Part shown: positions 16,941-63,696 of the stretch, in pieces
Position numbering within the stretch: position 1 is the first letter of the stretch
How the letters are laid out: each line of letters begins with the position of its first letter
From: Desulfovibrionaceae bacterium
Lineage (GTDB): Bacteria > Desulfobacterota > Desulfovibrionia > Desulfovibrionales > Desulfovibrionaceae
Length of the DNA stretch: 64,000 nt
NCBI GenBank assembly: GCA_963674665.2
Contig: CAXXPL010000011.1
Location: 80,567-144,566 of the forward strand
Direction of reading: 5' to 3'
Translations under genes and position numbers: made by a program
The notes under the pieces: generated by a model
The model's input: the letters and a program-made list of their open reading frames with translations, nothing else
What the model was told of the DNA's origin: nothing
Database searches by the model: none

Positions 16941-17138
16941 GAAGGAGGCTCCTTAAGAAAAAGGGAAAAGAGTCAATTTGGACAATTATAGCATGGAGTC
17001 GATGTCGCGTCCATTGATGATCGATAAAAAACGTGAAGCAATGCTAAGGTGACACTGCCAAAGGCGTGCAGTGTAAATCAATACTTAACTTATTCGCGCT
17101 TCCTTAAATTCCATAGAAAATATTATTCAGTCTATGCG

Positions 17139-17472
17139 TTACCGCCCTTGCATGGCGTCGATAACCGTTTCTATGGCATCCAGGATACGTCTCTTGGGGT
17201 TGTCCTTGCAAATGGATCCAACGACTTCCCCCAGCCCTTCCCATCGATCCGGAGTAAAGGTGTCGATATTGCTCTTCCCGACGTAGTATTCGTCGACCCA
17301 TACCAGGATGATGCCCACCACGGCCTTGTCCCTTGCCACGAGTTCGCCGCAGGTGAGTTCGCGGATGTCCACGGTGAGGGGAAGGGGAGCCGCCGGAGAG
17401 GGAATCCGCCATGGCCGGGGCAACGAAAAGGAGCACGAGAGCGATCTTGACGTACTGAGGGATTGTTCGCAT
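17139..17472 (-). pseudogene. HdeA/HdeB-like periplasmic protein, reading frame broken just after the signal peptide
   Basis: ATG at 17472 gives signal peptide MRTIPQYVKIALVLLFVAPAMADSLSGG, then junk. A different frame (shift within CCCCTTCCCCTC, about 17385-17400) gives LPLTVDIRELTCGELVARDKAVVGIILVWVDEYYVGKSNIDTFTPDRWEGLGEVVGSICKDNPKRRILDAIETVIDAMQGR ending at 17139. Confidence 0.5.
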
Positions 17473-18413
17473 GGGATACCCCCGGTGGATGCTTTAAAAA
17501 TGTTTCGGCGCAAGGTTCATGTGTTGAAAAAAGTGCCATAGTGTATCCTGAAACAAAGATGGTCGCAATGAGTTGTGGAGGAGGGCATGCTCTCATGCCA
17601 TTGGCGTAAGGGATGGTGTTTTGAAATTGAAGTTGATGTTGTGCAAAATGCTGACAAGTTGCGCACCAATGATTTGGTAATGGTATATGTCCAGAGGACG
17701 CTGAAAAGAATATAGATCTGTAACTGGCTGATGATGGTAATGGATCTGGATGAATCTTTGTGAGGCGGCAACTACGAATATCAGGAAAAGAAGTCCCGAA
17801 ATGGAGTGGAAATACTTGAATTGCTGCTGAACCAGTGGACAGAAAGCAGCTTATCTGGGATAATAAATATTAAAAAGAACTGTGTTGACAAGGGGATCAA
17901 CCGCCAGCCGTGTTGCCTGCGGCAGCAATGACAGACACGCGGGAGAATGAAATGACGGTAACGGGATCAGTGGTCGCAAGTTTCGTGACACGTAACGATG
18001 ACATGCCCGGAACAATTCGAAACATTCGTGTTGCCATCGGTGATCAGGGGCGGGAGGGGGTCACGTCCAAAACAGTTCGCCTCGAGGCCTGTGGAACTCT
18101 TTTACTGCAGGGGTTTCAAATCCTCGGGAAACGGAGGCGGGGCCGACTTGACCTGCGGAGTGCGGGAATGAACTCCTGACATCGTTTCCCCGGAGATGAC
18201 AGCATTGTATTTCTCAGGGTCCTTGGGCGGTACTGCCGCGCCACTATTCGTTCCAACTTCCCGCCCCACAGGAAGTAGTCTCTTCGATGCAAAATTGACA
18301 AAAGCGTTTTCTTGACAAGGCCGTTACAAGGGGGCATCCAATCGGGGTTTTCTTTTGCCATTGGGGGAGGCCCGATCGTTGACCTTGGCCATTCACTTTA
18401 CCTAGGAGGAAGC

Positions 18414-27344: not shown

Positions 27345-27420
27345 GGGCGGGTAGCTCAGCTGGGAGAGCATCGGCCTTACAAGCCGAGGGTCACAGGTTC
27401 GAGCCCTGTTCCGCCCACCA
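27345..27420 (+). tRNA. tRNA-Val (anticodon TAC)
   Basis: Hand-folded cloverleaf. Acceptor is GGGCGGG/TCCGCCC, D arm GCTC-AGCTGGGA-GAGC, anticodon arm TCGGC-CTTACAA-GCCGA and T arm ACAGG-TTCGAGC-CCTGT. CCA is encoded. Confidence 0.9.
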
Positions 27421-27481
27421 CCTTCAGGCAAATGCCTGTAAATTTGATTCAGGCCAGGATTCATGCCTGGATACCATATGC

Positions 27482-27558
<77 letters not shown>

Positions 27559-27567
27559 CAAAAGAAA

Positions 27568-27600
27568 GGGGTCGCATCGCAAGATGTGACCCCAATTTCT
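27568..27600 (+). terminator. Hairpin after tRNA-Asp (weak terminator)
   Basis: GGGGTCGCAT-cgcaag-ATGTGACCCC (one mismatch) followed by AATTTCTT. Confidence 0.45.
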
Positions 27601-27648
27601 TAATTACATCACGCTAGTAAGCCACGCACAGGGCTTTACTATACCTAA

Positions 27649-27678
27649 GGGCTGGGAGAGTACTCCTGGCCCTTTTTT
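27649..27678 (+). terminator. Rho-independent terminator
   Basis: 10-bp stem GGGCTGGGAG / CTCCTGGCCC (two G-U pairs), 4-nt loop, then TTTTTT. Confidence 0.65.
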
Positions 27679-28438
27679 CGTTGGGCACAAAACGCGGACA
27701 CAAAGAACATATGGAGTTGGTACTTCAGGTAGTTATGACCGGAAATTTGGTGTTGCAGTATGAAATCATTGAAGCTATTGTTTAAAAAATACTATTGGAG
27801 ACTACTGAATGCATTTCTTGTTAGGTATAATTCCTGGAGTTGTAGCTTGCTAGCTTTTATACAGCGAAAGTACATATGTATTCTACTTTGCTGTTCTCGC
27901 ATCCATTTTGTACATCATATCTTCAATGACTGTCATTATAGACGCTATTCGTATTGTTAGCGAAAGAACAAATATGGAAAAATTACTCAAGAGCTTCAAC
28001 GGTGTTGATCTAGCATCATCAGTCAGTATAAGTGCACTGATTGCCAATTGTACAATGCCGACGTAGACAACGAACAACGGGTCAGATCGACATCTGAAAA
28101 ACTTGTTTCGCCCCCTAGCTTGCCAAAGGCCGACGAAATAATGAGGAGCAGAAGCACGGATTCCCATCTGTGCCAGGCACCATGAGCAAGAGGCTAGATA
28201 AATAGTAGCATCTGACTTCTCGCATAACAAAGTCGTTGACCCCAGAGCAGGCCATATCTGGGGACTACTTGTATGGGCCTGTACAAATTTAGTATAATTG
28301 GTTAATTAGTATGACCATTCAGGTTAAAATAGACCGAAGGAATTGTGACGTAATGCACCCTAACGACACATGAAAATAAATTTACTATGACTGCCTTGCT
28401 AATTTCTCCTATTGCTCTCTCATGAGAATATCTTCCCT

Positions 28439-29668
28439 ATGACAACTTATCAGATAACTACAAACGCAGATTGGGGAGACTATGTAAAACCTAAATTCTT
28501 GCGTTATACACCAATACACCGCTGGCTCGTCTTCCCGCATAGCTTCACGCCCGAATTAGTTGATGACCTCATTAATAAATGGGGATTAAATAGTTCTGAC
28601 AAAATCCTAGACCCATTTGTTGGAGCTGGAACGACCCTGATTGCTGCACAAAAAGCGGGAATCCCCTCTCAAGGCTATGATCTTTCGCCGTTCGCCGTAT
28701 TGGCCTCAAACGTAAAAACAGCAAACTATATAGCAAATGACTTGTGTAAGGATTGGGATACGATCAAAAGGCGCTTAAGCACTCCTTTTAAAGGCCCCCT
28801 AAAAAAAGAATACCCTGATTTAATCCGCAAAGCTTTTGCACCCAACATTCTACTTGCCCTTGAAGAGACACGGTCTCAAATCATCCAACGAACCTCAAAT
28901 AATCAGTCTAGGGCATTCTTTTTACTAGCCCTACTTGCTATCATTCCTGAAATAAGCAGGGCGGAGGCAACTGGCGGTTGGCTGAAATGGGTGGAAAAAG
29001 AACCATCCATAGATGACCTTAAAACTGCGTTCACTGACCAAGTTATGCTTATGCTTAATGACGTTCAAACTCTAAATGACAAGGAACTGGCTAAGGCGAG
29101 CTCTCAGATTACGGACGCGAGGTACCTGCCTGAAACTGACCCAACTTACTCTGCTATTATAACATCTCCACCGTATCCTAATAGGCATGACTACACACGT
29201 GTGTTCGGGGTGGAATTGATGTTTGAGTTTTTAGACTGGGGCCAAACCCGATCATTAAGATATCAAAGCATCCATTCTCATCCAGAGGCAAAGCCTATGC
29301 GCCCAGAGGTACAGGGCTATGTTCCTCCAATGGGATTACAAAAAAGTCTTGAAAAAATCGAAAAGTCGGCTCCAAAACGTATCGTCAAAATGCTAAAAGG
29401 CTATTTTCTAGATTTATTTTGCTGCTTTAAAGAAATGAACAGAGTAGCACTAAACGACGCAAAGATTGCGGTCGTACTTGGAAATGCTCAGTATTATGGT
29501 GAGCCTTTTCATGTAGACGAATATGCTGCCGAAATAGGCGAACAAGTAGGATTGGTGTGCCAAAAAATCGTAACTGCCCGAATTAGAGGAAACAGTGCTC
29601 AGCAAATGAAAAAATACGGTCGCAATCCATCTCGTGAAAGTGTGGTTATTTTTAACAATAAAAGCTGA
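28439..29668 (+). CDS. DNA methyltransferase (N6-adenine or N4-cytosine; SPPY type) with motif I preceding motif IV
   Basis: AdoMet motif I is LDPFVGAGTTLIAAQKAGIPSQGYDLSPFA near the N-terminus. Catalytic motif IV is IITSPPYPNRHDY about 185 aa later. The ATG at 28439 is preferred over the TTG at 28412. Confidence 0.8.
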   Translation: MTTYQITTNADWGDYVKPKFLRYTPIHRWLVFPHSFTPELVDDLINKWGLNSSDKILDPFVGAGTTLIAAQKAGIPSQGYDLSPFAVLASNVKTANYIANDLCKDWDTIKRRLSTPFKGPLKKEYPDLIRKAFAPNILLALEETRSQIIQRTSNNQSRAFFLLALLAIIPEISRAEATGGWLKWVEKEPSIDDLKTAFTDQVMLMLNDVQTLNDKELAKASSQITDARYLPETDPTYSAIITSPPYPNRHDYTRVFGVELMFEFLDWGQTRSLRYQSIHSHPEAKPMRPEVQGYVPPMGLQKSLEKIEKSAPKRIVKMLKGYFLDLFCCFKEMNRVALNDAKIAVVLGNAQYYGEPFHVDEYAAEIGEQVGLVCQKIVTARIRGNSAQQMKKYGRNPSRESVVIFNNKS

Positions 29669-29678
29669 AAAAAAAATT

Positions 29679-30065
29679 TTAAAGAGAAACTATCTTCTTA
29701 GAAATCATAATTGCCATATCAATAGCTCGTTTATCATAACTTAGCTTAGCGACCTCAGCTAGTTGCACTGTTATGTCAAATACAACAGAATCATTTTTTA
29801 AAGCGTGCTCATCTGCCGATGAAACGAACGCCCAAAAATTTTTCGCAAACTCAAACAACTCATCTGGCGTATTGTTTGACTTTGAAATCTCAAGAGCATC
29901 CTTAAGGTTATCATTATTTGCGTACGTATTGAGCAGATCATCTGAATTCCCTTGCAAGTACTGTCTCAGCTGAGACCATTTTGCATGAGTGTCAGGCGCA
30001 GATACGTTCACATTATGGGCCATAAACTTCCCCACAAAACCAGTACGAGTTTTAAGTTGTGCCAT
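29679..30065 (-). CDS. Hypothetical small protein (gene 5 of the island operon)
   Basis: A strong AGGAGG RBS lies 6 nt upstream of the ATG at 30065 (MAQLKTRTGFVGKF). The ATG sits inside the last codons of the upstream gene. The protein has 128 aa and no recognisable motif. Confidence 0.55.
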   Translation of the reverse strand: MAQLKTRTGFVGKFMAHNVNVSAPDTHAKWSQLRQYLQGNSDDLLNTYANNDNLKDALEISKSNNTPDELFEFAKNFWAFVSSADEHALKNDSVVFDITVQLAEVAKLSYDKRAIDMAIMISKKIVSL

Positions 30066-30840
30066 CTTTATCCTCCTGCGGGCGTTTAGCCTGCATCTTC
30101 GCAATAATCTCTTCTAATGATTGAATGTCATCCTTCAAACTTGGCGCGTCCTTCATTTCTTCCGCGATTTGAGAAAGCAACTGTACCCCAATAACCTTTG
30201 CGAGGTCCATACCGATTTCCACCTTATGTGCCCCAGGCTGAAGGCTGCTCTCTTTGTATCGTTTATAGGACTCTCCAAGAGCATTGCCCTTTTCTCCATT
30301 AACATCAATAGCTTGTAATACGCATTTCCTTGCAAACTCCCAAACATTACTATCATCAACGTTATTCATGATCTCGCTGACTAAAGGCCTAAGTTTAGTA
30401 TTTCGTATTATACCATACTGATGGTAAAGAACCGCATGAATCTTTTGGAAAAGGATCTGCAAAACTATTGATACTTTTTTATCAGCCTCACTCTGATCCG
30501 GACGATAGGAAGTTATGAGTGCAAAACCTACGCCTCCAATTAGGACTGCTAATAGATATGGGTGATCGCTAATTGAAAGTGACAAAATGTGTATTTCAAA
30601 AGTTTCTAAAACCTTGAAGGCTATGACAGCCAATGTGCCGTTGTAAACAGCGTACATATGGCAGGGCCACGACCTAAGAACTACCATCGGCTTGTCGGTA
30701 AAATCATTTATAAATAAGACTAAGCCGACAAGGCCTCCAATAAAAAAGGCAAGGCAGGGAGCAAGGAATGCTTGTACCATAGGGGCGTATACAAATGCCT
30801 GAGTGTCGGCCAAGACAGATGTAAACCAAGTGTTCATCAT
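30052..30840 (-). CDS. Hypothetical membrane protein (three or more N-terminal TM helices + soluble C-terminal domain; gene 4 of the island operon)
   Basis: 262 aa. TM segments are FLAPCLAFFIGGLVGLVLFI, MYAVYNGTLAVIAFKVL and YLLAVLIGGVGFALITSY. A GAGGG RBS is present. Confidence 0.6.
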   Translation of the reverse strand: MMNTWFTSVLADTQAFVYAPMVQAFLAPCLAFFIGGLVGLVLFINDFTDKPMVVLRSWPCHMYAVYNGTLAVIAFKVLETFEIHILSLSISDHPYLLAVLIGGVGFALITSYRPDQSEADKKVSIVLQILFQKIHAVLYHQYGIIRNTKLRPLVSEIMNNVDDSNVWEFARKCVLQAIDVNGEKGNALGESYKRYKESSLQPGAHKVEIGMDLAKVIGVQLLSQIAEEMKDAPSLKDDIQSLEEIIAKMQAKRPQEDKDGTT

Positions 30841-30880
30841 ACCCTCAAATTAGTTTGCTGCTTTCATTATACTAATCATT

Positions 30881-33136
30881 CTACTTTTGTGTTAATCGTT
30901 CAACTTCATAATCATTGCCTACTAAAGATGTAGAAAAAATTAATCGCCCTTTATACTTAGCATTTAACTTTTTATTGTAGGAAGTATCAGGCTCATTGCA
31001 GCGGAAAAAGCGTAGTTGGCCAATTCGGTAACCAGGGAAAAGTCGAATAGGATTTGGACCTGCATTATATATCTCAAAAGTTATCGCTCCATGGAATCCA
31101 GGATCTATTAAATTTGCAGTCATATGGACCTGCACTCCCAATCTGGCAAAACTACTTCGTCCTTCTATTTGTGCTGCAACACTGTTTGGGAACCCAAAAT
31201 ACTCCATCGTATGGGCCAACACGAACTGACCAGGCGCTAAAACAATTCCTGTCTTAAAATCAAGGTCTACAATAGACGAATTAGTCAAAACATTTTGAAC
31301 AGATTCTGGATTCGTAAAATCAATCACACCACTTTGGTTTGGTTGGTAAGTTTGAAAAGTCGGTCCAAGTCGAATATCAAGAGAAGCTGAACCAAGTTGG
31401 GTCTTCAAATCAATCAACGGAATTACTTTTAGCTCATCATCTTCGAGTAGTTTCTTAATTTCCCTATCCACAAGAACAGCAGGGATATATATAGAATTTT
31501 CTTCACATTTTTCTGTGTTACTTCGTACTGGCTCCTGGCTTTCTATATCGGTATTCTTGGGCTTAAGCAAAGAAACCCATTCGCTTATTTGAAGAGATCG
31601 AAGAACAGCTTGATTAAACCTTTCAAAATATGGAGCTATATTTTCTTCAAACACTTTCCATTGCTCTTTATCCTGACTATTATGCAGTACACCAATGTGG
31701 CTAAAAAACTCATTCATCACTTCATCGCACAACGCCGTATCATGAGAAACCCAGGCAGCCAGCATTATGTCATATATAGATGTTTCTACCTCTTTAGATA
31801 TATTTTCTTCTAATGAAATAGACGGAATAGGGTATCCCCCATTCAACCTGTCCACAAGCCGTTTTAAAATCTTATTGTCAAATAACTGAGCAGCCGCTTT
31901 TAGCTTTTTCACATGCTGTTTTACATTCTCCGTGCCTTTGTCATCCATCTTGAAATGATCATTAAAGAAGGATGCAAACCACATTGCTATTTCGTATGCA
32001 TCATCAAGCACCTTCTCGTTTTCATGCTTAAGCAAGTCTGACAAGGAAAAGTTCAATGGAGATACATCGTATTCAAGTGGGTAATCAAACTGCCATTGGT
32101 GATTTTCAAATATATGTTCGAGAACTAATAGACGCAAATAAAATGAAGGGTGCGTAGATGTTCCGATGTCCCGATGCCAATTTCTTTGAAGAACGAACGC
32201 GTTACGTTGAGCAAAGAGTATCGCTGGACCTGTAGCAAAATAGGCATATATATCGCACCAACATTCAGTTAACCAAGAACCTAAAACATCTTTTTTATCA
32301 GTGTTCTCTTTCGCTACTTCATTAATTCTTGAGAGTTGTCTAATAAAAGCCTTATGATATTCGTTTCGATATGGATCTTTAAAAAAAGCATCTACAATAT
32401 TTTTGTGTTCTAACAATGCCCACTTCATCACCTGATGCCCAACTTCATGGGCTAACACTGGCCAAGACAGAGGGTTTTGAGTTTCTTCTCGTGGTATGCT
32501 AATATGATATGACTCGTCATTTTCCTGGGTTAGCCCTGCGTACGCATCTGAATACACATTTCGCAAAGTTGGAATTAAGACCATGTTTTCGTATTTTTTT
32601 AACGGGTGATTCTCATAGGTAACCGTTCCGCAGTCAACACCCGAATACAGCACAAACTTTGTTTCATTCGATATTTCGCTAACTTCGTTAGAATTCTCAT
32701 TTTCAGCACTCCCCTGCTTCGATTCGCCACTCTGATCTGCAATTCCCTCTCTATTGAAAATTCTCAAAAATCTATATAGCTCTATAAGGATGTCTGGTTT
32801 AGGTAAAATAACCAACTCATCTGACAACAGAATTACTGATTCGTACAAGCTTAGCAGTTCAGTATAGAGCTTTTTTTTCTCAGAATCATCAACACACGAC
32901 TCGTATGAAGACAGCGAATAAATGAGCGCGCTAAAGATCTCCCGCAAACTCCTAATAAAATGTTTATTTTTATTTTTATGGCGGGAGTTTATATTTTTAT
33001 GCCATGTGGAGGCTGTAGACTGAAGCTGGTCAAAAAGGACCGAAATGCGTTCAAGTATTACAAATACCAGATTATAAAGAAAAGGATCATTCTTTAACAA
33101 ATGAATTCGGTTAAAAGTCATAGTCGCCACCTTCAA
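30881..33136 (-). CDS. Fusion protein: N-terminal HExxH metallopeptidase-like region + C-terminal complete dCTP deaminase (Dcd) domain (gene 3 of the island operon)
   Basis: HEVGH is encoded at 32435-32449. Residues about 553-735 parallel E. coli Dcd along its whole length. DREIKKLLEDDELKVIP matches DRDIEAWLDEGRLSINP, and SLDIRLG matches VDVRLG. GRSSFARLGVQVHMTANLIDPGFHGAITFEIYN matches [33 protein letters not shown], and the catalytic Glu is retained. The probable ATG start is at 33121; the track start at 33136 is TTG. Confidence 0.85.
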   Translation of the reverse strand: MKVATMTFNRIHLLKNDPFLYNLVFVILERISVLFDQLQSTASTWHKNINSRHKNKNKHFIRSLREIFSALIYSLSSYESCVDDSEKKKLYTELLSLYESVILLSDELVILPKPDILIELYRFLRIFNREGIADQSGESKQGSAENENSNEVSEISNETKFVLYSGVDCGTVTYENHPLKKYENMVLIPTLRNVYSDAYAGLTQENDESYHISIPREETQNPLSWPVLAHEVGHQVMKWALLEHKNIVDAFFKDPYRNEYHKAFIRQLSRINEVAKENTDKKDVLGSWLTECWCDIYAYFATGPAILFAQRNAFVLQRNWHRDIGTSTHPSFYLRLLVLEHIFENHQWQFDYPLEYDVSPLNFSLSDLLKHENEKVLDDAYEIAMWFASFFNDHFKMDDKGTENVKQHVKKLKAAAQLFDNKILKRLVDRLNGGYPIPSISLEENISKEVETSIYDIMLAAWVSHDTALCDEVMNEFFSHIGVLHNSQDKEQWKVFEENIAPYFERFNQAVLRSLQISEWVSLLKPKNTDIESQEPVRSNTEKCEENSIYIPAVLVDREIKKLLEDDELKVIPLIDLKTQLGSASLDIRLGPTFQTYQPNQSGVIDFTNPESVQNVLTNSSIVDLDFKTGIVLAPGQFVLAHTMEYFGFPNSVAAQIEGRSSFARLGVQVHMTANLIDPGFHGAITFEIYNAGPNPIRLFPGYRIGQLRFFRCNEPDTSYNKKLNAKYKGRLIFSTSLVGNDYEVERLTQK

Positions 33137-33491
33137 TAATTAAAGTTATTTTATATTGAATATAAAATATATTTTTTAACTCATCGATGGTTTTGACAGA
33201 ATCTATACCCAGTGCTGTTTTTTTGGTGAGGTAATTTACTAAATGATTTGGTGTAACAGTCCGATACCCATGAATAATCTTCAGTTCTAGCTCTCCTGAT
33301 TCATGTTTGACCATCCCGTTTACAACCGCTTCGAGAATGGATGCCAATGGGTACGAGAACATGCACCAACGAAGGTCAAGGGTCACCTGTTGAGGCAATT
33401 CATAACTATTAATTTCCGAGAGCAACTTATCAAGGTGTGGTCGACTAGTCGGACGACGATAGCCCATTTCTCTGAAACTTATTATCATCAC
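33111..33491 (-). CDS. Small STAS-like (DUF4325-like) protein (gene 2 of the island operon)
   Basis: 126 aa. VTLDLRWCMFSYPLASILEAVVNGMV resembles the v.lDf.gv...s.sfldE strand-helix of STAS-like domains. Its start (GTGATG context, 33486-33491) overlaps the stop of the upstream gene. Confidence 0.5.
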   Translation of the reverse strand: MMIISFREMGYRRPTSRPHLDKLLSEINSYELPQQVTLDLRWCMFSYPLASILEAVVNGMVKHESGELELKIIHGYRTVTPNHLVNYLTKKTALGIDSVKTIDELKNIFYIQYKITLIIEGGDYDF

Positions 33492-34546
33492 AACTGTTCC
33501 TCACATTCCAAAAAGTAATAAAATGGGGTTTTTCCAACAACTCTAAAACTTGATCGCCACACATCGTTGTACGAGGGAGGGTCTTGGTCGATTGGACTAA
33601 GAGAACTTAAGACAAGACGACTATACTGATCAAATACAGATATGTTAGTACCTATAGCAAGGCAATTGTTAACTATACTCGACATGCCGCAGCCGTAATT
33701 CTCCTCAGAATCGCTACCTGAAACCTCATCTGTCAAAGCGAGCTTATAACCATCTGCAAAGTTGCCTTTATTTTTTTTTGATGGATATGGAGCAAAAAAT
33801 TTTTCAGAAATATGCTGATATATACCTGGTCCTAGGTCTCCAACAAGAAGATTGATCTTTGTTTTAGTCTCTGTTTCGATAACATCCAACCCTAAAAGTC
33901 CATCAGCATTCGCATGATCTGCAATATTTTTAACAATTTCTTCTAGGACATGGGTTAGCTGATTACCCTTGTCTTGGTTACGCACAAAAACAGAATCAAA
34001 AACGGGATCAACATGATCAAAGAGCTTTTGAAGAATATCCCTTCTTCTTTCAGTGTATTGACTAAAATCAAGATGACATAGGGGCATAGAGTTAACCCTT
34101 CTTAAAAATGACGCATGAACTACTGGCTCTAAACGATTTTGGCAGTACTCATCGGCAAGCTCTTTTGAAAGACGAGTTTTTATAGCTTCAAAAAAACCTA
34201 GCTGTGAACACAACTTCATCATTTTGGGATCATCGTGCTCAACAACCCGTGTAACGAACGGTTCTTTATTGTCAGCATCTAGCTGCTTTTTCATATTTTT
34301 AATAATCGATCCTTGAAATAAACTGAGCTGTCCCCCAGTTGTTTCCTTCTCTTCCAACCTTTCGGGAAAACGAAGGTTAAACAGGTAGTGTAAGTTCAAT
34401 GCTGAAGCTGCAAGGCCGCAAGACTCAAAACCTTCGCACTGACTTAAATCCAAAATACAGGTATTTTTGATATCAGCCCAAGAATTCGCAAGAGGAGAAC
34501 AACCCATCTGTTCAGGCCACAAAGTCAACCGTGTGTCACGTGTCAT
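33488..34546 (-). CDS. GHKL-type ATPase (RsbW/SpoIIAB-like HATPase fold) with N-terminal STAS-like region (gene 1 of the island operon)
   Basis: 352 aa. N box is LEEIVKNIADHA, G1 is VGDLGPGI and G2 is YGCGMSSI. No H-box/DHp is seen. The N-terminus ILDLSQCEGFESCGLAASALNL is STAS-like. A GGAGG RBS is present. Confidence 0.65.
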   Translation of the reverse strand: MTRDTRLTLWPEQMGCSPLANSWADIKNTCILDLSQCEGFESCGLAASALNLHYLFNLRFPERLEEKETTGGQLSLFQGSIIKNMKKQLDADNKEPFVTRVVEHDDPKMMKLCSQLGFFEAIKTRLSKELADEYCQNRLEPVVHASFLRRVNSMPLCHLDFSQYTERRRDILQKLFDHVDPVFDSVFVRNQDKGNQLTHVLEEIVKNIADHANADGLLGLDVIETETKTKINLLVGDLGPGIYQHISEKFFAPYPSKKNKGNFADGYKLALTDEVSGSDSEENYGCGMSSIVNNCLAIGTNISVFDQYSRLVLSSLSPIDQDPPSYNDVWRSSFRVVGKTPFYYFLECEEQL

Positions 34547-35066
34547 TTTGGAGTCCCTCCTCTTCAGTGGACACGTTTTCTATGGTTCAACTCTATCAAT
34601 ATTAGAAATTTGTCTGTCTGTATTTTTTGTAGTTAGAGGGAAAAGAAATTACCTTTTCAGGCAGTTAAAAAAAGTTCAATTATTCCACAGGAAATCTCCT
34701 GGATCGTACCTGATCAGCCAAGTTCATACCTTACCTTGATCGTCAGAATCATCATTTCAAAATATTGCGGTATATTCATAAATATCTCTGCTTATGAGTC
34801 TGGTTGCAGGATATACTTTTAACTATTGAATGTGAAGATTTGAACCAGAAAAAAGGCCAGAACTCATGTCCTGACCCTTCATAGTGGTTTTATGGCTCCT
34901 GCCCTGCTACTTCAGCTTCAAGGTCGTCTCCAGGGCATCACGGCTTCCTTCTCTCCCAGGATATTCAAACCATCAGGCAACGGGCTTTCCCGTCTTATAC
35001 AAATCGGTTGCGATGAGGCGAGGTATCACATGACAGCTGGAGCGTTTCACACTGGGCATACAACGG

Positions 35067-35112
35067 AAAACCGCCCGTAGGGGCCGAGGAGGGACCCACC
35101 ACGGGCGGTTTT
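35067..35112. terminator. Possible bidirectional terminator between the island and dgoK
   Basis: AAAACCGCCCGT ... ACGGGCGGTTTT stem with a 22-nt loop and A/T runs on both sides. It lies about 75 nt downstream of the dgoK stop. Confidence 0.45.
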
Positions 35113-60788: not shown

Positions 60789-61572
60789 GAATTCCTCACG
60801 ATTATTTCGTTGTGTTGATGTGTCTCGGAAAAGGTCCGGACGCGTCATCAGGAGGCTTGCAGCACCTTGTGGAAGGGGTGCTCCGAGAAGAGACCGGGGC
60901 GGCATCCAGGATACGTGATTTTTTGTTGTTTCTCGTTGGCAATAAATGTCTGTAAAAAACATCGACGGAATAGTAGTGTGTCTGCGGGGTATGGAATTTT
61001 CCCCGGGTTTAAGGAGTTGATCGGTGTATTTCCTGGATTGGGATGTTTTGAGATCCTGGCAAGGGGTGCATCATCCAGTTCGGCAATTGTGAATTGATTT
61101 GCGATCCGTTTATTGATCAAGACCGGATTTGCCATGGCTTCTGCACGGCGATGATCCGTTGCATCTGAATATACAATCGTAGTTATTCAGTAGCTTGGCT
61201 CATGGATATATAGTGGTGGATCGATTCATGGCTCCGTATTAGTTCGGACAGAAACATTGGACAAAAGTGGCAAGGGATACATTTTTGTATGAGATGCTTG
61301 CAAGTGAATTTTATGTAAAGTTGATTTCGAAGGTAACAAAATATCAGTATTGTATAGTCGATTTAAAAAATCAGCGCTAATTAATTGTGTAGATTAATTG
61401 AGTTCACATCGGTGTCGACAATAATTGTGGCATTTTTCGCGGTTATGGAGTAATATTTAAGACAAAGTGTGAGGACATTAAAACTTCAAGAGTTGAACCG
61501 ACAGCGATCATGTGCGGTTTGCAGGGATAATCTCGAAAGGAATATCACATTTTTTATGTAGAGGGGGAGGAT

Positions 61573-63696
61573 GTGAATATCGATGCCGTTGCCCAACACA
61601 AGGAAGCCCTGCTGCGTTCAATGCCGGACGTGGTGAATTATATCTCCACATTTCGCTCAATCAATAAGCGTTGGGACGGCGCCATAACCGCCGGCATGAT
61701 CGAGACCGGCCGCATGGAGGACGAGGCCTCCCGGCTCTTCGCCCCGCTCATTCAGGACATGGGCTCCACCAAGAACCGGTACAGCGACATACAGAACCGG
61801 CTGGTGGACGCCATCATGTTCGAGATGGCCAAGAAGGTCATCTTCGAGATCAAGGACGCAGCCAAATTCGCCATAAACATCCTCAAGCGCAATCTCTTCG
61901 AACGTACCGCCGATGTGGGCTATCTGGCCACTGACGCGGAGATCGTCAATCTGCTCCGGATGGTTGTCGACGGTCGGGATGAGCGCGATTTGGCCGATCA
62001 GGGCAAAGTCATCCGCCAACGCCTGGCCGAATATCAGTACGAATACACCGTGTATGACGAAATCCTCGTCATGGACAGGGATGGTTACGTGCGGGCCAAC
62101 CTGTGCCGGGACAATCACCTGAAGGTATCGCATGATCCCTGCCTGGAGCGGGCGCAGGCGGTGAATCTGCGCGGCAACCAGGACGAGGACAAGTACATCG
62201 AGATCATGCGGGAGACTGATCTGCACCACCGCCAGGGCAAAACTCTCGCCTATGCGCAAAAAATCGAGGATCCGGAGACCCGGCGATCCCTGGGAACCCT
62301 GTGCCTGTGCTTCAACTTCGAACAGGAGATGGAGAGCATTTTCAGCGACCTGCACCAGGGAAACCAGCACCTGACGGTCGCAATCCTGGATGCGGAGGGT
62401 GGTGTGCTGAGTTCCAACAATCCCGAAGTCCTGCCCGCAAGGGCAAAAGTGAGCGCGGATCTGGGCGCAGATTTCAGGGTTCTCAGCATCAATAACAGGC
62501 AATACCTGGCCAACATAGCGGCCACGGACGGGTATCAGGGATTTTACGGCCTCACATGGTACGGCCTTGCAATGGTGGAGGTGACCTCCGCCTTCAGCCA
62601 GACCGGTCTGCGGGACACCACTGATGGGGATCTGATGGAAAAACTGCAGAACTTTTCCCAGGAACTCACCGGCATAAAGGACGAGTCGGACGGGCTGTTG
62701 GCGGACATGAAGCTCGACAGCATCAACGGGCAGGTCAAGGCCGCCAAGTACGAGGCCAACGGGTTTGTGGAGGTGCTGCGCTTCGTGGATTTCATCGGCG
62801 ACGAGATCGACGGGCTCTTGTCCCAGGCCATCAGAAACCTCCAGAAGACCATTGTCACGTCCCTGTTCAACGATCTGCAGTTCCGCGCCTTCCAGGGCAA
62901 CAACATCGCGGACAGAAATCTCTACGAGCGCGCCAACGACGTCTGCTGGTGGGCGCTCACCCCAATGTTCCGCAGGCTGCTCACCAAACATGCGGATGAG
63001 GGACTCACCGTCGAGGAGTGTCAAAGCCTCCGGGACAACCTGCAGTATATCAACGACCTCTACACACCCTATCTGCGCCTCGTACTGGCGGACGCCCGGG
63101 GGACCGTGGTGGCTCTGTCCGACCCCCCGAGCGAGCTCAATGAGCGTTTTCTCATGGAGGGCATGCCCCAGGGGCAGGAGTTCGTGGGAACAAGGCTGGA
63201 TAAGGAACTGGTGGCCAAGGCCATGACCCTGCCTTCCAGCAAGGACTACTGCGTGTCCGGGTTCGTGGCCACCGACCTTTATGGGGGGCGCCCCACCTAT
63301 GTGTACAGTACCGCTGTGAGGAGCCCGGAGAACATGGACCGTACAGTTGGAGTGGTGCAGATCGTGTTCGACGCAGAGCCGCAGTTCAAGGATATGCTCA
63401 ACGATGTTCTGCCGCGCGACGAGAACAAGCAGGTTGTGGAGGGGAGCCTGGGATTTTTCGTGGACAGGGGCGGCAAGATCATCGCGTCGACCTCGCAGGA
63501 GTTTGCGCCCGGTGATATCCTTCCATTGCCGAAATCCCTGTATCTCGGCGAAAAGGGAGCGCGCAACTCATCGGTGGTGGAGTTGAAGGGCCGTTCCTAC
63601 ACCGTGGGGCGGCAGGTGTCCGAAGGGTACCGGGAGTACAAGCGCAGTGACGGCTACGTCAACGACGTGATCTGTCTGATTATGATCCCCATCTAG
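61573..63696 (+). CDS. Cytoplasmic protein built from two tandem Cache/PAS-like double-sensor modules, no output domain
   Basis: 707 aa (GTG start with GGGGGAGG RBS) and no TM or signal peptide. Internal duplication is visible by eye. RNLFERTADVGYLATD pairs with RNLYERANDVCWWALTP. YEYTVYDEILVMDRDGYVRANL pairs with DLYTPYLRLVLADARGTVVALS. LGTLCLCFNFEQEMESIFSDL pairs with TVGVVQIVFDAEPQFKDMLNDV. Confidence 0.65.
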   Translation: MNIDAVAQHKEALLRSMPDVVNYISTFRSINKRWDGAITAGMIETGRMEDEASRLFAPLIQDMGSTKNRYSDIQNRLVDAIMFEMAKKVIFEIKDAAKFAINILKRNLFERTADVGYLATDAEIVNLLRMVVDGRDERDLADQGKVIRQRLAEYQYEYTVYDEILVMDRDGYVRANLCRDNHLKVSHDPCLERAQAVNLRGNQDEDKYIEIMRETDLHHRQGKTLAYAQKIEDPETRRSLGTLCLCFNFEQEMESIFSDLHQGNQHLTVAILDAEGGVLSSNNPEVLPARAKVSADLGADFRVLSINNRQYLANIAATDGYQGFYGLTWYGLAMVEVTSAFSQTGLRDTTDGDLMEKLQNFSQELTGIKDESDGLLADMKLDSINGQVKAAKYEANGFVEVLRFVDFIGDEIDGLLSQAIRNLQKTIVTSLFNDLQFRAFQGNNIADRNLYERANDVCWWALTPMFRRLLTKHADEGLTVEECQSLRDNLQYINDLYTPYLRLVLADARGTVVALSDPPSELNERFLMEGMPQGQEFVGTRLDKELVAKAMTLPSSKDYCVSGFVATDLYGGRPTYVYSTAVRSPENMDRTVGVVQIVFDAEPQFKDMLNDVLPRDENKQVVEGSLGFFVDRGGKIIASTSQEFAPGDILPLPKSLYLGEKGARNSSVVELKGRSYTVGRQVSEGYREYKRSDGYVNDVICLIMIPI

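Follow-up and report, generated by a model that had tools for sequence, protein, structure and literature searches.

Background

Switches in which a STAS-GHKL kinase and a small STAS protein gate a toxic effector by phosphorylation have experimental precedent in two bacterial systems, VapKSC and CapKS (Chambers et al., EMBO J 2026, PMC13373217). CapK, which consists of a helix-turn-helix (HTH), a STAS and a GHKL domain, phosphorylates CapS (a STAS domain followed by a C-terminal winged HTH (wHTH), which CapS requires) on Ser54 when single-stranded DNA (ssDNA) is present, with de-repression of the adjacent immune operons; the ssDNA cue is bound between the STAS and GHKL domains of CapK, and CapKS is found ahead of various systems, CBASS, Bub and Thoeris among them, and adjoins restriction-modification (R-M) systems in 88 of 443 cases (PMC13373217). 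VapK has the STAS-GHKL part and is proposed to phosphorylate VapS (a STAS domain with a short tail) on Ser48, freeing the PIN toxin VapC; VapS is the antitoxin to VapC and is released by a phospho-mimic mutation, and VapKSC is protective against phage (PMC13373217). Here, we analyzed a gene pair with a related domain layout in a 64,000-nucleotide stretch of DNA from a Desulfovibrionaceae bacterium (GenBank assembly GCA_963674665.2, contig CAXXPL010000011.1, positions 80,567 to 144,566 of the forward strand; hereafter the window), where it heads an operon that belongs to a six-gene cassette and whose third gene ends in a dCTP deaminase domain.

The genes of the cassette are numbered 1 to 6, and coordinates are positions in the window. 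The original prediction, made from the sequence letters, had placed an RsbW/RsbV-like partner-switching pair at 33111-34546, directly upstream of a deaminase effector. Both open reading frames (ORFs) exist as described and the pair does head the operon. Gene 1 is classed below, from its motifs and profile matches, as a STAS-GHKL protein closest to VapK, while gene 2 is treated as a candidate switch protein, for which both the predicted STAS identity and a serine phosphorylation are conjectural. Together, the two genes are a candidate sensing and switching module of a horizontally mobile, candidate anti-phage unit.

The GHKL domain of gene 1

Gene 1 (34546..33488, minus strand; 352 aa, ATG start) is the first gene of the operon and encodes a STAS-GHKL protein resembling VapK and CapK, with the STAS domain at aa ~1-135 (34142..34546, minus strand) and the GHKL (Bergerat) ATP-binding domain at aa ~165-352 (33488..34054, minus strand). 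All three nucleotide-binding motifs named in the original prediction were located, namely EEIVKNIADHA (aa 202-212), DLGPGI (237-242) and GCGMSSI (285-291), and they supply the N box (E203/N207/D210/H211), the G1 box (D237/G239/G241) and the G2 box (N283/G285/G287). A search of 5.8 billion proteins gave a close family of 16 proteins, and a profile run against 1.84 billion cluster representatives (clusters at 50% identity) retrieved 141 relatives at E ≤ 1e-3. Conservation was counted over 114 diverged full-length members of this family, in all of which E203, N207, D210, G241 and G285 are kept; H211, G239 and G287 are conserved in 113/114 and N283 in 112/114, and position 237 is Asp in 103 and Glu in the other 11. 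These near-invariant columns place gene 1 among the GHKL proteins and show its ATP-binding site to be intact. The N box has the form E-x3-N-x3-H, in common with SpoIIAB, and E203 corresponds to the N-box glutamate that has been put forward as catalytic base in that kinase. Residue 276, within the ATP-lid segment G-x-S/T-T-K, is Ser or Thr in 114/114 relatives (71 S, 43 T).

The Pfam model HATPase_c matched gene 1 with E 1.6e-5 and 25.7 bits, just under its gathering cut-off of 26.4. When 100 relatives were scanned individually, HATPase_c matched 70 of them (best E 5.9e-9), HATPase_c_2 15 and HATPase_c_5 11, and no other family, the GHKL and STAS groups apart, matched more than two. HATPase_c_2, which does not match gene 1 itself, is described by the tool only as a histidine kinase-like ATPase domain; we take it to be the anti-sigma kinase family. 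Neither HisKA nor another H-box family was found in gene 1 with Pfam or NCBIfam, or among the 25 most-hit families of the 100 relatives, in agreement with the predicted lack of a histidine-phosphotransfer box, and the cassette has no response regulator or receiver domain. Gene 1 was therefore rejected as a sensor histidine kinase, as it lacks both the H box and a receiver domain and carries its STAS domain upstream of the GHKL domain.

Searches against PDB sequences with a profile of the close family matched no chain, and a profile of 100 sequences matched CheA over the C-terminal half (profile positions 195-307, E 8e-6). The AlphaFold2 model of gene 1 has a mean predicted local distance difference test score (pLDDT) of 69.5 and a predicted TM-score (pTM) of 0.75, with pLDDT < 50 at aa 1-27 and 59-93. 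Foldseek comparison of this model with the PDB gave nothing at E ≤ 0.001; the best matches were the anti-sigma Ser kinases UsfX (8jzt_B, E 0.012, probability 0.99) and SpoIIAB (1l0o_A, E 0.036; also 1tid), in structures where they are bound to sigma F or to their antagonists, followed by the CheA P4 domain and histidine-kinase catalytic domains, with short matches to RsbV chains lower down. The fold matches are confined to the catalytic domain, and their ranking bears out the expectation that the GHKL domain is of the kinase/anti-sigma type. Among the 50 Foldseek matches listed, none was described as MutL, MORC, Hsp90 or GyrB. A GHKL protein of the MORC/Hsp90/MutL type, the alternative fold that had been named for gene 1, was rejected on this ground and because the PDB sequence matches are kinases, STAS proteins and one unnamed chain.

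In order to place gene 1 among described kinases, the 114-sequence profile was compared by hhalign with single sequences, those of VapK, VapS, CapK and CapS being taken from the supplementary files of PMC13373217. VapK gave the highest score (97.4; probability 98.2, E 3.9e-14, 115 columns), in a match that takes in the boxes and also the lid segment that separates G1 from G2. CapK followed (score 74.1; probability 96.8, E 3e-10, 114 columns), then ten sensor histidine kinases (scores 45-68; probability 86.9-96.5, E 1e-9 to 4.2e-6, 67-111 columns) and SpoIIAB (score 36.4; probability 71.6, E 3.5e-5, 100 columns), all of these E-values being pairwise and not database-calibrated. The histidine-kinase control is stringent, because the ten kinases were preselected by a G1-box pattern in common with gene 1; with VapK and CapK used as single sequences, CapK stands only marginally above the best of them (74.1 vs 68). 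A clear result was obtained only with the 114-sequence profile, and narrow alignments of genes 1 and 2 gave no significant hhalign match to single VapK and VapS. Since its GHKL profile scores above ordinary histidine kinases and SpoIIAB, gene 1 is assigned on profile similarity to the CapK/VapK kind of STAS-GHKL proteins, closest to VapK, which likewise lacks an HTH.

The STAS domain of gene 1

The N-terminal consensus of the 114 sequences is D-F-S-x-C/V-x-x-V-D-S-x-G-L. Consensuses of this type are the textbook STAS signature. In gene 1 the motif is LDLSQCEGFESCGLAA, with D33, S35, C37, S42, G44 and L45, and LGFF follows at aa 116-119. Among the 100 relatives scanned, Pfam STAS_2 matched 15 (best E 2.9e-4) and STAS 14 (best E 4.5e-6), two sets that may overlap and are not additive. 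The N-terminal half of the profile (positions 14-99) matched the prestin STAS domain, SpoIIAA and SpoIIAA-like chains in the PDB (E 0.013-0.52), and the sole other PDB match at E ≤ 1 that starts in this half is the unnamed chain 9lni_A 'ZZ1' (E 0.01, profile positions 52-178). Based on the Pfam matches in relatives, the PDB sequence matches and the column consensus, the STAS-like N-terminus of the original prediction is confirmed, at the level of the family, as a STAS domain.

An ungapped hhalign alignment sets ESCGLA of gene 1 on DSSGLG of SpoIIAA, with S42 on the phospho-Ser58 (E 0.0016, probability 16%, not significant). An insertion of ~35 aa at aa 59-93, modelled with low confidence (disordered), interrupts the STAS domain and varies in length among homologues.

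The predicted effector and its coupling to the gene pair

Gene 3 (33121..30881, minus strand; 746 aa) is the predicted effector and encodes an N-terminal domain bearing an HExxH motif (31478..33121, minus strand; motifs HEVGH and WLTECWCD) fused to a C-terminal Dcd-type dCTP deaminase domain (30881..31477, minus strand; motifs EGRSSFARLG and TFEIYN). The C-terminus matched TIGR02274 with E 9.4e-49 (165.5 bits vs a cut-off of 92.8) and Pfam DCD with E 1.6e-42, and aligned end to end with E. coli Dcd (1xs1, residues 3-182; E 1.2e-29). Both the GRSSxARLG motif and the catalytic Glu (E138; LEFYN in Dcd, TFEIYN in gene 3) are conserved, and they are invariant in eight cassettes. By these signatures gene 3 carries an intact Dcd-type dCTP deaminase, and the pair was thus rightly predicted to stand ahead of a deaminase effector. 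For the ~545-aa N-terminal domain, no sequence relative was found in Pfam or the PDB; H230/E231/H234 (HEVGH) and E291/W293/C294/D295 (WLTECWCD), in the numbering of a 751-aa ORF, are invariant in 11 diverged cassettes, and the domain may be a zincin-like metallopeptidase or a metal-binding sensor fused to the deaminase.

The ribosome-binding site of gene 1, GAGGAGGG, lies 8 nt 5' of its ATG. Gene 2 (33488..33111, minus strand) has 125 aa from the start on the public record (ATG at 33488) and 126 aa in the ORF listing (GTG at 33491), and its start codon overlaps the stop codon of gene 1 (TGATG). The start of gene 3 on the public record, an ATG at 33121, overlaps the end of gene 2 by 11 nt, and the GGTGG ribosome-binding site of gene 3 is located within gene 2. 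As judged from these overlaps, genes 1, 2 and 3 are translationally coupled.

The putative switch protein

Gene 2 encodes a small alpha/beta protein with the motif VTLDLRWCMFSYP, the candidate switch or substrate protein of the cassette, and a profile search found 22 homologues. Its AlphaFold2 model is confident (pLDDT 89.5, pTM 0.84), with the element order b-a-b-a-b-a-a-b and a 7-residue loop, containing S45 and Y46, that precedes helix 2. The STAS-like motif VTLDLRWCMFSYPLASIL (also written LDLRGCvFSYP), on which the predicted STAS character of gene 2 had been based, is present, and the 'LDFSxC' strand of the gene 1 STAS profile aligned with the LDLRGC of gene 2 (hhalign, E 0.0033). S45 is invariant in 22 aligned sequences (the window protein with its close homologues), and Tyr46 in 26/26 sequences (the 22 plus four divergent cassettes). 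A non-significant hhalign alignment of gene 2 with VapS runs in a single register for 46 columns, starting in helix 1, crossing the LD(L/F) strand and ending in helix 2, which places the VapS phospho-acceptor Ser48 on Y46, adjoining S45.

Among Foldseek matches of the model, the best compact PDB fold was SiaC (TM 0.44-0.46, E 0.57, not significant), and further matches were Rossmann- or P-loop-like (Rab GTPases, short-chain dehydrogenases/reductases, receiver domains), none of them significant. No wHTH or other DNA-binding domain was matched in gene 2 by Pfam. SiaC is a kinase substrate structurally related to STAS proteins, and the SiaB/SiaC partner switch controls the diguanylate cyclase SiaD (PMC8457831).

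A six-gene cassette with an obligatory methyltransferase

Gene content was compared over 12 contexts, that is, the window and the neighbourhoods of 11 relatives of gene 1, the nearest 59% identical and the most distant ones retrieved at profile E-values of 1e-17, 4e-8 and 2e-4. The same set was found in 12/12 contexts: a STAS-GHKL protein, a protein of 122-160 aa, one of 708-770 aa ending in a DCD domain, one of 233-318 aa, one of 128-152 aa and an N6_N4 methyltransferase. The genes of similar size to genes 4 and 5 stand at the same positions in all contexts, and the set is kept in relatives that are only ~15-20% identical in gene 1. The pair of genes 1 and 2 was never seen apart from the other four genes in these contexts. 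No cassette-linked sigma factor or PP2C phosphatase was found in the 12 contexts, among either the cassette genes or the Pfam-annotated neighbours; a single sigma-70 gene, in context L032, lies ~4 kb away among housekeeping genes.

Gene 6 (28439..29668, plus strand; 409 aa) is an amino-type DNA methyltransferase, convergent with the operon, which matched Pfam N6_N4_Mtase (E 2e-8) and PADLOC MTase_II PDLC03224 (E 2.1e-59) and has DPFVGAGTT as motif I and TSPPY as motif IV. The cassette methyltransferases come in two architectures, one of 276-307 aa with motif IV first and one of 405-418 aa with motif I first, and are placed upstream, downstream co-directionally or convergently. TSPPY is always kept, as in gene 6 and in those at L029:402-1232, L030:5296-6549, L031:5617-6483 and L032:13005-13928. 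Amino-methyltransferases with SPP[YF] are classed as N4-cytosine enzymes, although exceptions are known. Gene 6 is, by this motif, probably an N4-methylcytosine (m4C) enzyme, and the retention of TSPPY through varied placement and architecture points to selective maintenance of an m4C-type mark next to a cytosine deaminase.

Gene 4 (30840..30052, minus strand; 262 aa) is a predicted membrane protein without a Pfam or PDB match, in which hydropathy indicates hydrophobic segments at aa 15-48, 70-88 and 94-112, of which the first could by its length cross the membrane twice, ahead of a C-terminal half that is soluble. Gene 5 (30065..29679, minus strand; 128 aa from the start on the public record) encodes a small, probably helical protein without a meaningful Pfam match, whose PDB sequence matches are de novo designed helical repeats only (E down to 9e-22); these matches are compositional, reflecting likeness to idealised helices, and not homology.

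Mobility and genomic setting

The genes flanking the cassette vary among the 12 contexts and include conjugation genes, a Mu-like prophage, an integrase with AlpA, HipAB, an SLFN/AlbA ATPase, a helicase-PLD protein and plain chromosomal genes, the pattern expected of a mobile defence-type module. On one metagenomic contig (L024:6759-11270), a Mu-like prophage (Mor, GemA, DUF3164, Mu transposase C-terminal domain) ends with the cassette, which can therefore travel as phage cargo.

No description of the cassette was found in a literature search or in PADLOC. In PADLOC-DB v2.0.0, a defence catalogue of 2023, genes 1-5 had no match at E ≤ 1 and only the methyltransferase was matched (MTase_II); ten gene 1 relatives from the broader family gave one weak match (PDC-M65A, E 0.005). 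The Ambrosia system, which combines a methyltransferase, a histidine kinase, a receiver domain and an HNH nuclease, was rejected as a counterpart, as its components differ. A 'dUTPase' domain, which may or may not be that of the cassette, is among the unvalidated predicted defence domains of DefensePredictor (PMC13092281). Genome contigs scanned with the gene 1 alignment gave no match, nor did a single-protein query, which finds only close relatives. A scan of metagenome contigs with the narrow alignment gave 15 loci, all of them ordinary sensor histidine kinases picked up through the G1-box pattern, and no cassette; these loci served only as controls. Scans of viral contigs with two alignments found no relatives, and tblastn of gene 1 against plasmid and phage collections gave no match.

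In the window, the five tightly packed minus-strand genes and the convergent plus-strand methyltransferase make up the content of an island with a guanine-cytosine (GC) content of 0.38-0.44 over ~28-35 kb (0.48 in the 27-28 kb bin), in flanks of ~0.62. The low-GC island starts directly after tRNA-Val and tRNA-Asp (27345-27558). A return to high GC was observed near 34890, adjoining a terminator-like hairpin (34880..34851, minus strand), located by consensus scan, that closes the upstream host gene. Between the hairpin and gene 1, the same type of scan gave a promoter-like site, TTCACA-17-TATCCT (34836..34808, minus strand), which is suggestive only, the count of such sites being not above shuffle expectation. 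No integrase-sized ORF is among the listed ORFs of at least 50 aa in 28-35 kb, and no direct repeat copying the tRNA end was seen for the island (27560-35100). Two more 1-kb GC dips, at 17001-18000 (0.486) and 61001-62000 (0.472) vs ~0.6, may be other small acquired segments.

Proposed mechanism and alternatives

A VapKSC-like trigger that gates dCTP depletion is the best-supported model for the cassette, and we advance it tentatively, with a confidence slightly short of an even chance. It draws on the domain layout and intact ATP site of gene 1, on its affinity to VapK and CapK, on the experimental precedent of those systems, on the overlapping genes and their constant order, on the register that gene 2 follows along VapS and its SiaC fold match, on the intact deaminase and on the mobile, defence-like setting. 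In uninfected cells, the gene 2 protein would bind the HExxH-Dcd fusion and keep it inactive. An infection cue (for CapK, ssDNA between STAS and GHKL) would activate the putative kinase encoded by gene 1, which would phosphorylate the gene 2 protein in the loop ahead of helix 2, at S45 or the invariant Y46. The freed deaminase would turn dCTP into dUTP, and phage DNA synthesis would be starved or uracil-loaded. Phosphotransfer and sequestration are what we infer here from the layout of the cassette and from its likeness to VapKSC, and the kinase activity, the acceptor residue, the contact between the products of genes 2 and 3 and the infection cue are to be read in the same conditional sense. 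The SPPY-type methyltransferase would mark host DNA; some component would therefore likely discriminate self from foreign, as in R-M or BREX.

Several results weigh against such a trigger. The S45 position is Thr in the divergent context L029 and Asp in L030, L031 and L032. Since helix N-caps are usually S, T or D, a structural role of S45 is as likely as one as phospho-acceptor, and for Tyr46 as acceptor we know of no precedent among anti-sigma-type GHKL kinases. The predicted STAS membership of gene 2, beyond the motif itself, failed at each comparison: no Pfam STAS/DUF4325 model (PF01740, PF13466, PF14213) matched at E ≤ 10 in nine close members or at E ≤ 5 in three divergent ones; profiles run against PDB sequences retrieved no STAS chain, though VapS (9z7o) was in the library; hhalign against VapS, CapS, SpoIIAA and RsbV gave E 0.09-0.6 with probabilities < 1%; and Foldseek of the model returned nothing at E ≤ 0.001 (best E 0.27 in the PDB, 0.2 in BFVD). 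The best PDB sequence match of the broadened gene 2 profile was instead BrxB/DUF1788 (9zll_E, E 0.15), with gene 2 positions 28-98 on BrxB 59-129 over 71 columns that include the invariant Tyr and the PYL motif. On the side of gene 1, the model is of only moderate quality, with all its Foldseek E-values > 0.01, the hhalign E-values are pairwise as stated above, and gene 1 appears to lack a conserved aromatic counterpart of the residue that contacts ssDNA (VapK F54, CapK W68); hhalign pairs VapK F54 with G39/F40, in an N-terminal alignment that is itself not significant (E 0.11), and most of the 114 sequences have V, I or L at position 40. Finally, the cassette has no phosphatase to reset the switch, and the methyltransferase, the membrane protein and the HExxH domain have no VapKSC counterpart and no role in the gating steps of the model.

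As an observation in its own right, the match of gene 2 to BrxB, which is not significant, takes in the D/S-Y and PYL motifs, and BrxB comes from another methyltransferase-linked defence system; DUF1788 had no Pfam match to gene 2, and BrxB has 192 aa vs the 125 aa of gene 2.

The main rival is a modification-dependent complex that works without phosphotransfer, in which gene 1 would be an ATP-driven switch whose STAS domain binds protein or nucleic acid, gene 2 would be a non-catalytic BrxB-like adaptor, and a BREX- or R-M-like machine with the methyltransferase would read unmethylated DNA and switch on the Dcd fusion. We regard it as possible, if on the unlikely side. It explains better than the kinase trigger the obligatory methyltransferase, the non-conserved serine and the missing phosphatase; a methyltransferase present in 12/12 contexts, variable in placement and constant in TSPPY, is what would be expected of a required self-marking enzyme, and genes 1 and 2, unlike the modular CapKS, never part from the other four genes. 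BrxB is described as an inactive STAND fold and the regulatory partner of the BREX effector PglZ (PMC12839542), which would suit the adaptor role, as would the Rossmann- and P-loop-like matches of the gene 2 model. The BrxB match is, however, at about chance level, both PDB entries concerned being the same protein, and BrxC, PglZ and BrxA are absent. Moreover, the GHKL domain of gene 1 is nearest to VapK/CapK, CheA and the anti-sigma kinases and not to the dimerisation-driven MutL, MORC or GyrB types, and E203, presumably at the catalytic-base position of SpoIIAB, is invariant in its family. A further reading, doubtful in our view, is a cytosine-centred, R-M-like immunity: m4C set by the SPPY methyltransferase would be the self mark, a membrane-associated complex would sense foreign or unmethylated DNA, and the STAS-GHKL protein would switch on the Dcd-fold enzyme through a small partner that is non-STAS or highly derived, with Tyr46 and not the serine as contact or acceptor. 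This reading would require that an anti-sigma-type GHKL kinase phosphorylates Tyr, or else that the switch works independently of phosphorylation; at its most daring, it would have the 545-aa HExxH domain direct the Dcd-fold domain to cytosines without N4-methylation, and not only free dCTP would be its substrate.

Transcriptional control of the CapK/CapS type, with gene 2 as a repressor of the downstream genes that is freed by phosphorylation after DNA damage, is very improbable. The pair does stand at the 5' end of the operon, as capK/capS do, gene 1 and CapK have in common the STAS-GHKL core and the QLGFF/NRLGFF motif, and CapKS often adjoins R-M systems. Against this, gene 2 is a single 125-aa domain in which Pfam finds none of the DNA-binding wHTH that CapS needs, gene 1 lacks the N-terminal HTH of CapK, genes 2 and 3 overlap and are translationally coupled, without any intergenic space that could house a promoter or operator for the target, and the pair is tied to one cassette in 12/12 contexts instead of heading diverse operons; with a DNA-binding domain in neither protein, this type of control was rejected. 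We consider a classical RsbW/RsbV or SpoIIAB/SpoIIAA switch, with a sigma factor sequestered by gene 1 and gene 2 as the antagonist, still less credible. It would draw on the UsfX and SpoIIAB structures, with sigma F or antagonists, that head the Foldseek matches, and on the HATPase_c_2 matches in 15/100 relatives. It was rejected because no cassette-linked sigma factor or phosphatase was found in the 12 contexts; in addition, gene 1 has 352 aa with a fused STAS domain vs ~145 aa for anti-sigma kinases, SpoIIAB is the weakest of all hhalign comparisons, and the locus is a mobile low-GC island with a nucleotide-depleting enzyme. RsbW and SpoIIAB being single-domain proteins, the RsbW/RsbV label of the original prediction did not hold in the strict sense and is too narrow, while its broader idea of a kinase/partner-type switch gating the deaminase is reasonable and now has a published precedent. 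Lowest of all we place fortuitous GHKL boxes and STAS motifs or non-functional, decayed genes, which could appeal to the single-sequence Pfam match of gene 1 below the gathering threshold and to the non-significance of all gene 2 matches. The conservation data effectively refute this: there are 141 representative relatives with near-absolute ATP-site conservation, the genes have uninterrupted reading frames, and the order of the six, identical in 12/12 contexts, persists in deeply diverged relatives; the gene 2 model is also a confident one.

Implications and comparison with known systems

If the VapKSC-like model is correct, a STAS-GHKL plus STAS-like switch of a kind shown only in 2026 (CapKS, VapKSC) would drive a very different effector, a dUTPase-fold dCTP deaminase with an uncharacterised HExxH domain, in an obligatory six-gene unit. 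The cassette would then be a new family among the nucleotide-depletion defences, one that senses through a kinase and marks self by methylation. That an m4C-type methyltransferase accompanies a cytosine deaminase is an unusual and specific trait open to verification, and the residues to target would be N207 and D237 of gene 1, S45 and Y46 of gene 2, the HExxH motif and the TFEIYN Glu of gene 3 and the SPPY motif of the methyltransferase. If the model fails, the cassette is still a well-delimited, uncharacterised candidate defence system outside PADLOC v2.0.0.

Compared with the nucleotide-depletion defences (dCTP deaminase, dGTPase, AvcID), the predicted output is the same, dCTP depletion on infection. 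To our knowledge, the known defensive dCTP deaminases have the zinc-dependent cytidine/dCMP-deaminase fold with kinase or P-loop N-domains, whereas gene 3 uses the trimeric dUTPase-fold Dcd. The obligatory DNA methyltransferase with variable placement and the weak, non-significant match of gene 2 to BrxB recall BREX and R-M-like systems; BrxC, PglZ, BrxA and a nuclease are absent from the cassette, and its methyltransferase is of the SPPY (m4C) type, in contrast to the N6-adenine PglX. With SpoIIAB/SpoIIAA, RsbW/RsbV and UsfX/RsfB, the cassette has in common a Bergerat fold of the Ser-kinase type. It differs from these modules in lacking a sigma factor and a PP2C phosphatase, in a kinase-like protein that carries its own STAS domain, and in an output that is an enzyme effector and not transcription. 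In SiaB/SiaC, a small STAS-related phosphorylated protein directly controls an enzyme instead of a sigma factor, much as proposed here, but SiaC (DUF1987) activates its target in biofilm signalling and has no sequence relationship with gene 2.

The closest comparisons are with CapKS and VapKSC. The STAS-GHKL core, the RLGFF-type motif that ends the STAS domain (NRLGFF in CapK, QLGFF in gene 1) and the position at the head of immune operons, often near methyltransferase or R-M genes, are common to CapK/CapS and the pair described here, while gene 1 lacks the HTH and gene 2 the wHTH, and the gene 1 family is found with one cassette only, in contrast to the modular CapKS that heads diverse systems. 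From VapKSC, the cassette differs in its effector (an HExxH-Dcd fusion with dCTP deaminase instead of a PIN RNase) and in three additional obligatory genes, for the membrane protein, the small helical protein and the SPPY methyltransferase. Pfam DUF4325 detects VapS (E 2.7e-17) and not gene 2; VapS Ser48 aligns with Tyr46 of gene 2, whose neighbour S45 is not conserved in divergent cassettes; and gene 1 has the ~35-aa disordered STAS insertion and no apparent conserved aromatic equivalent of VapK Phe54. What the two systems have in common is a two-domain, STAS-then-GHKL kinase-like protein without an HTH, followed by a single-domain protein of ~120 aa with the pattern 'V-x-LD-(L/F)-x-x-x-...-F-x-(S/Y)-P' and then by a toxic effector, in both cases in a defence-island or mobile setting.

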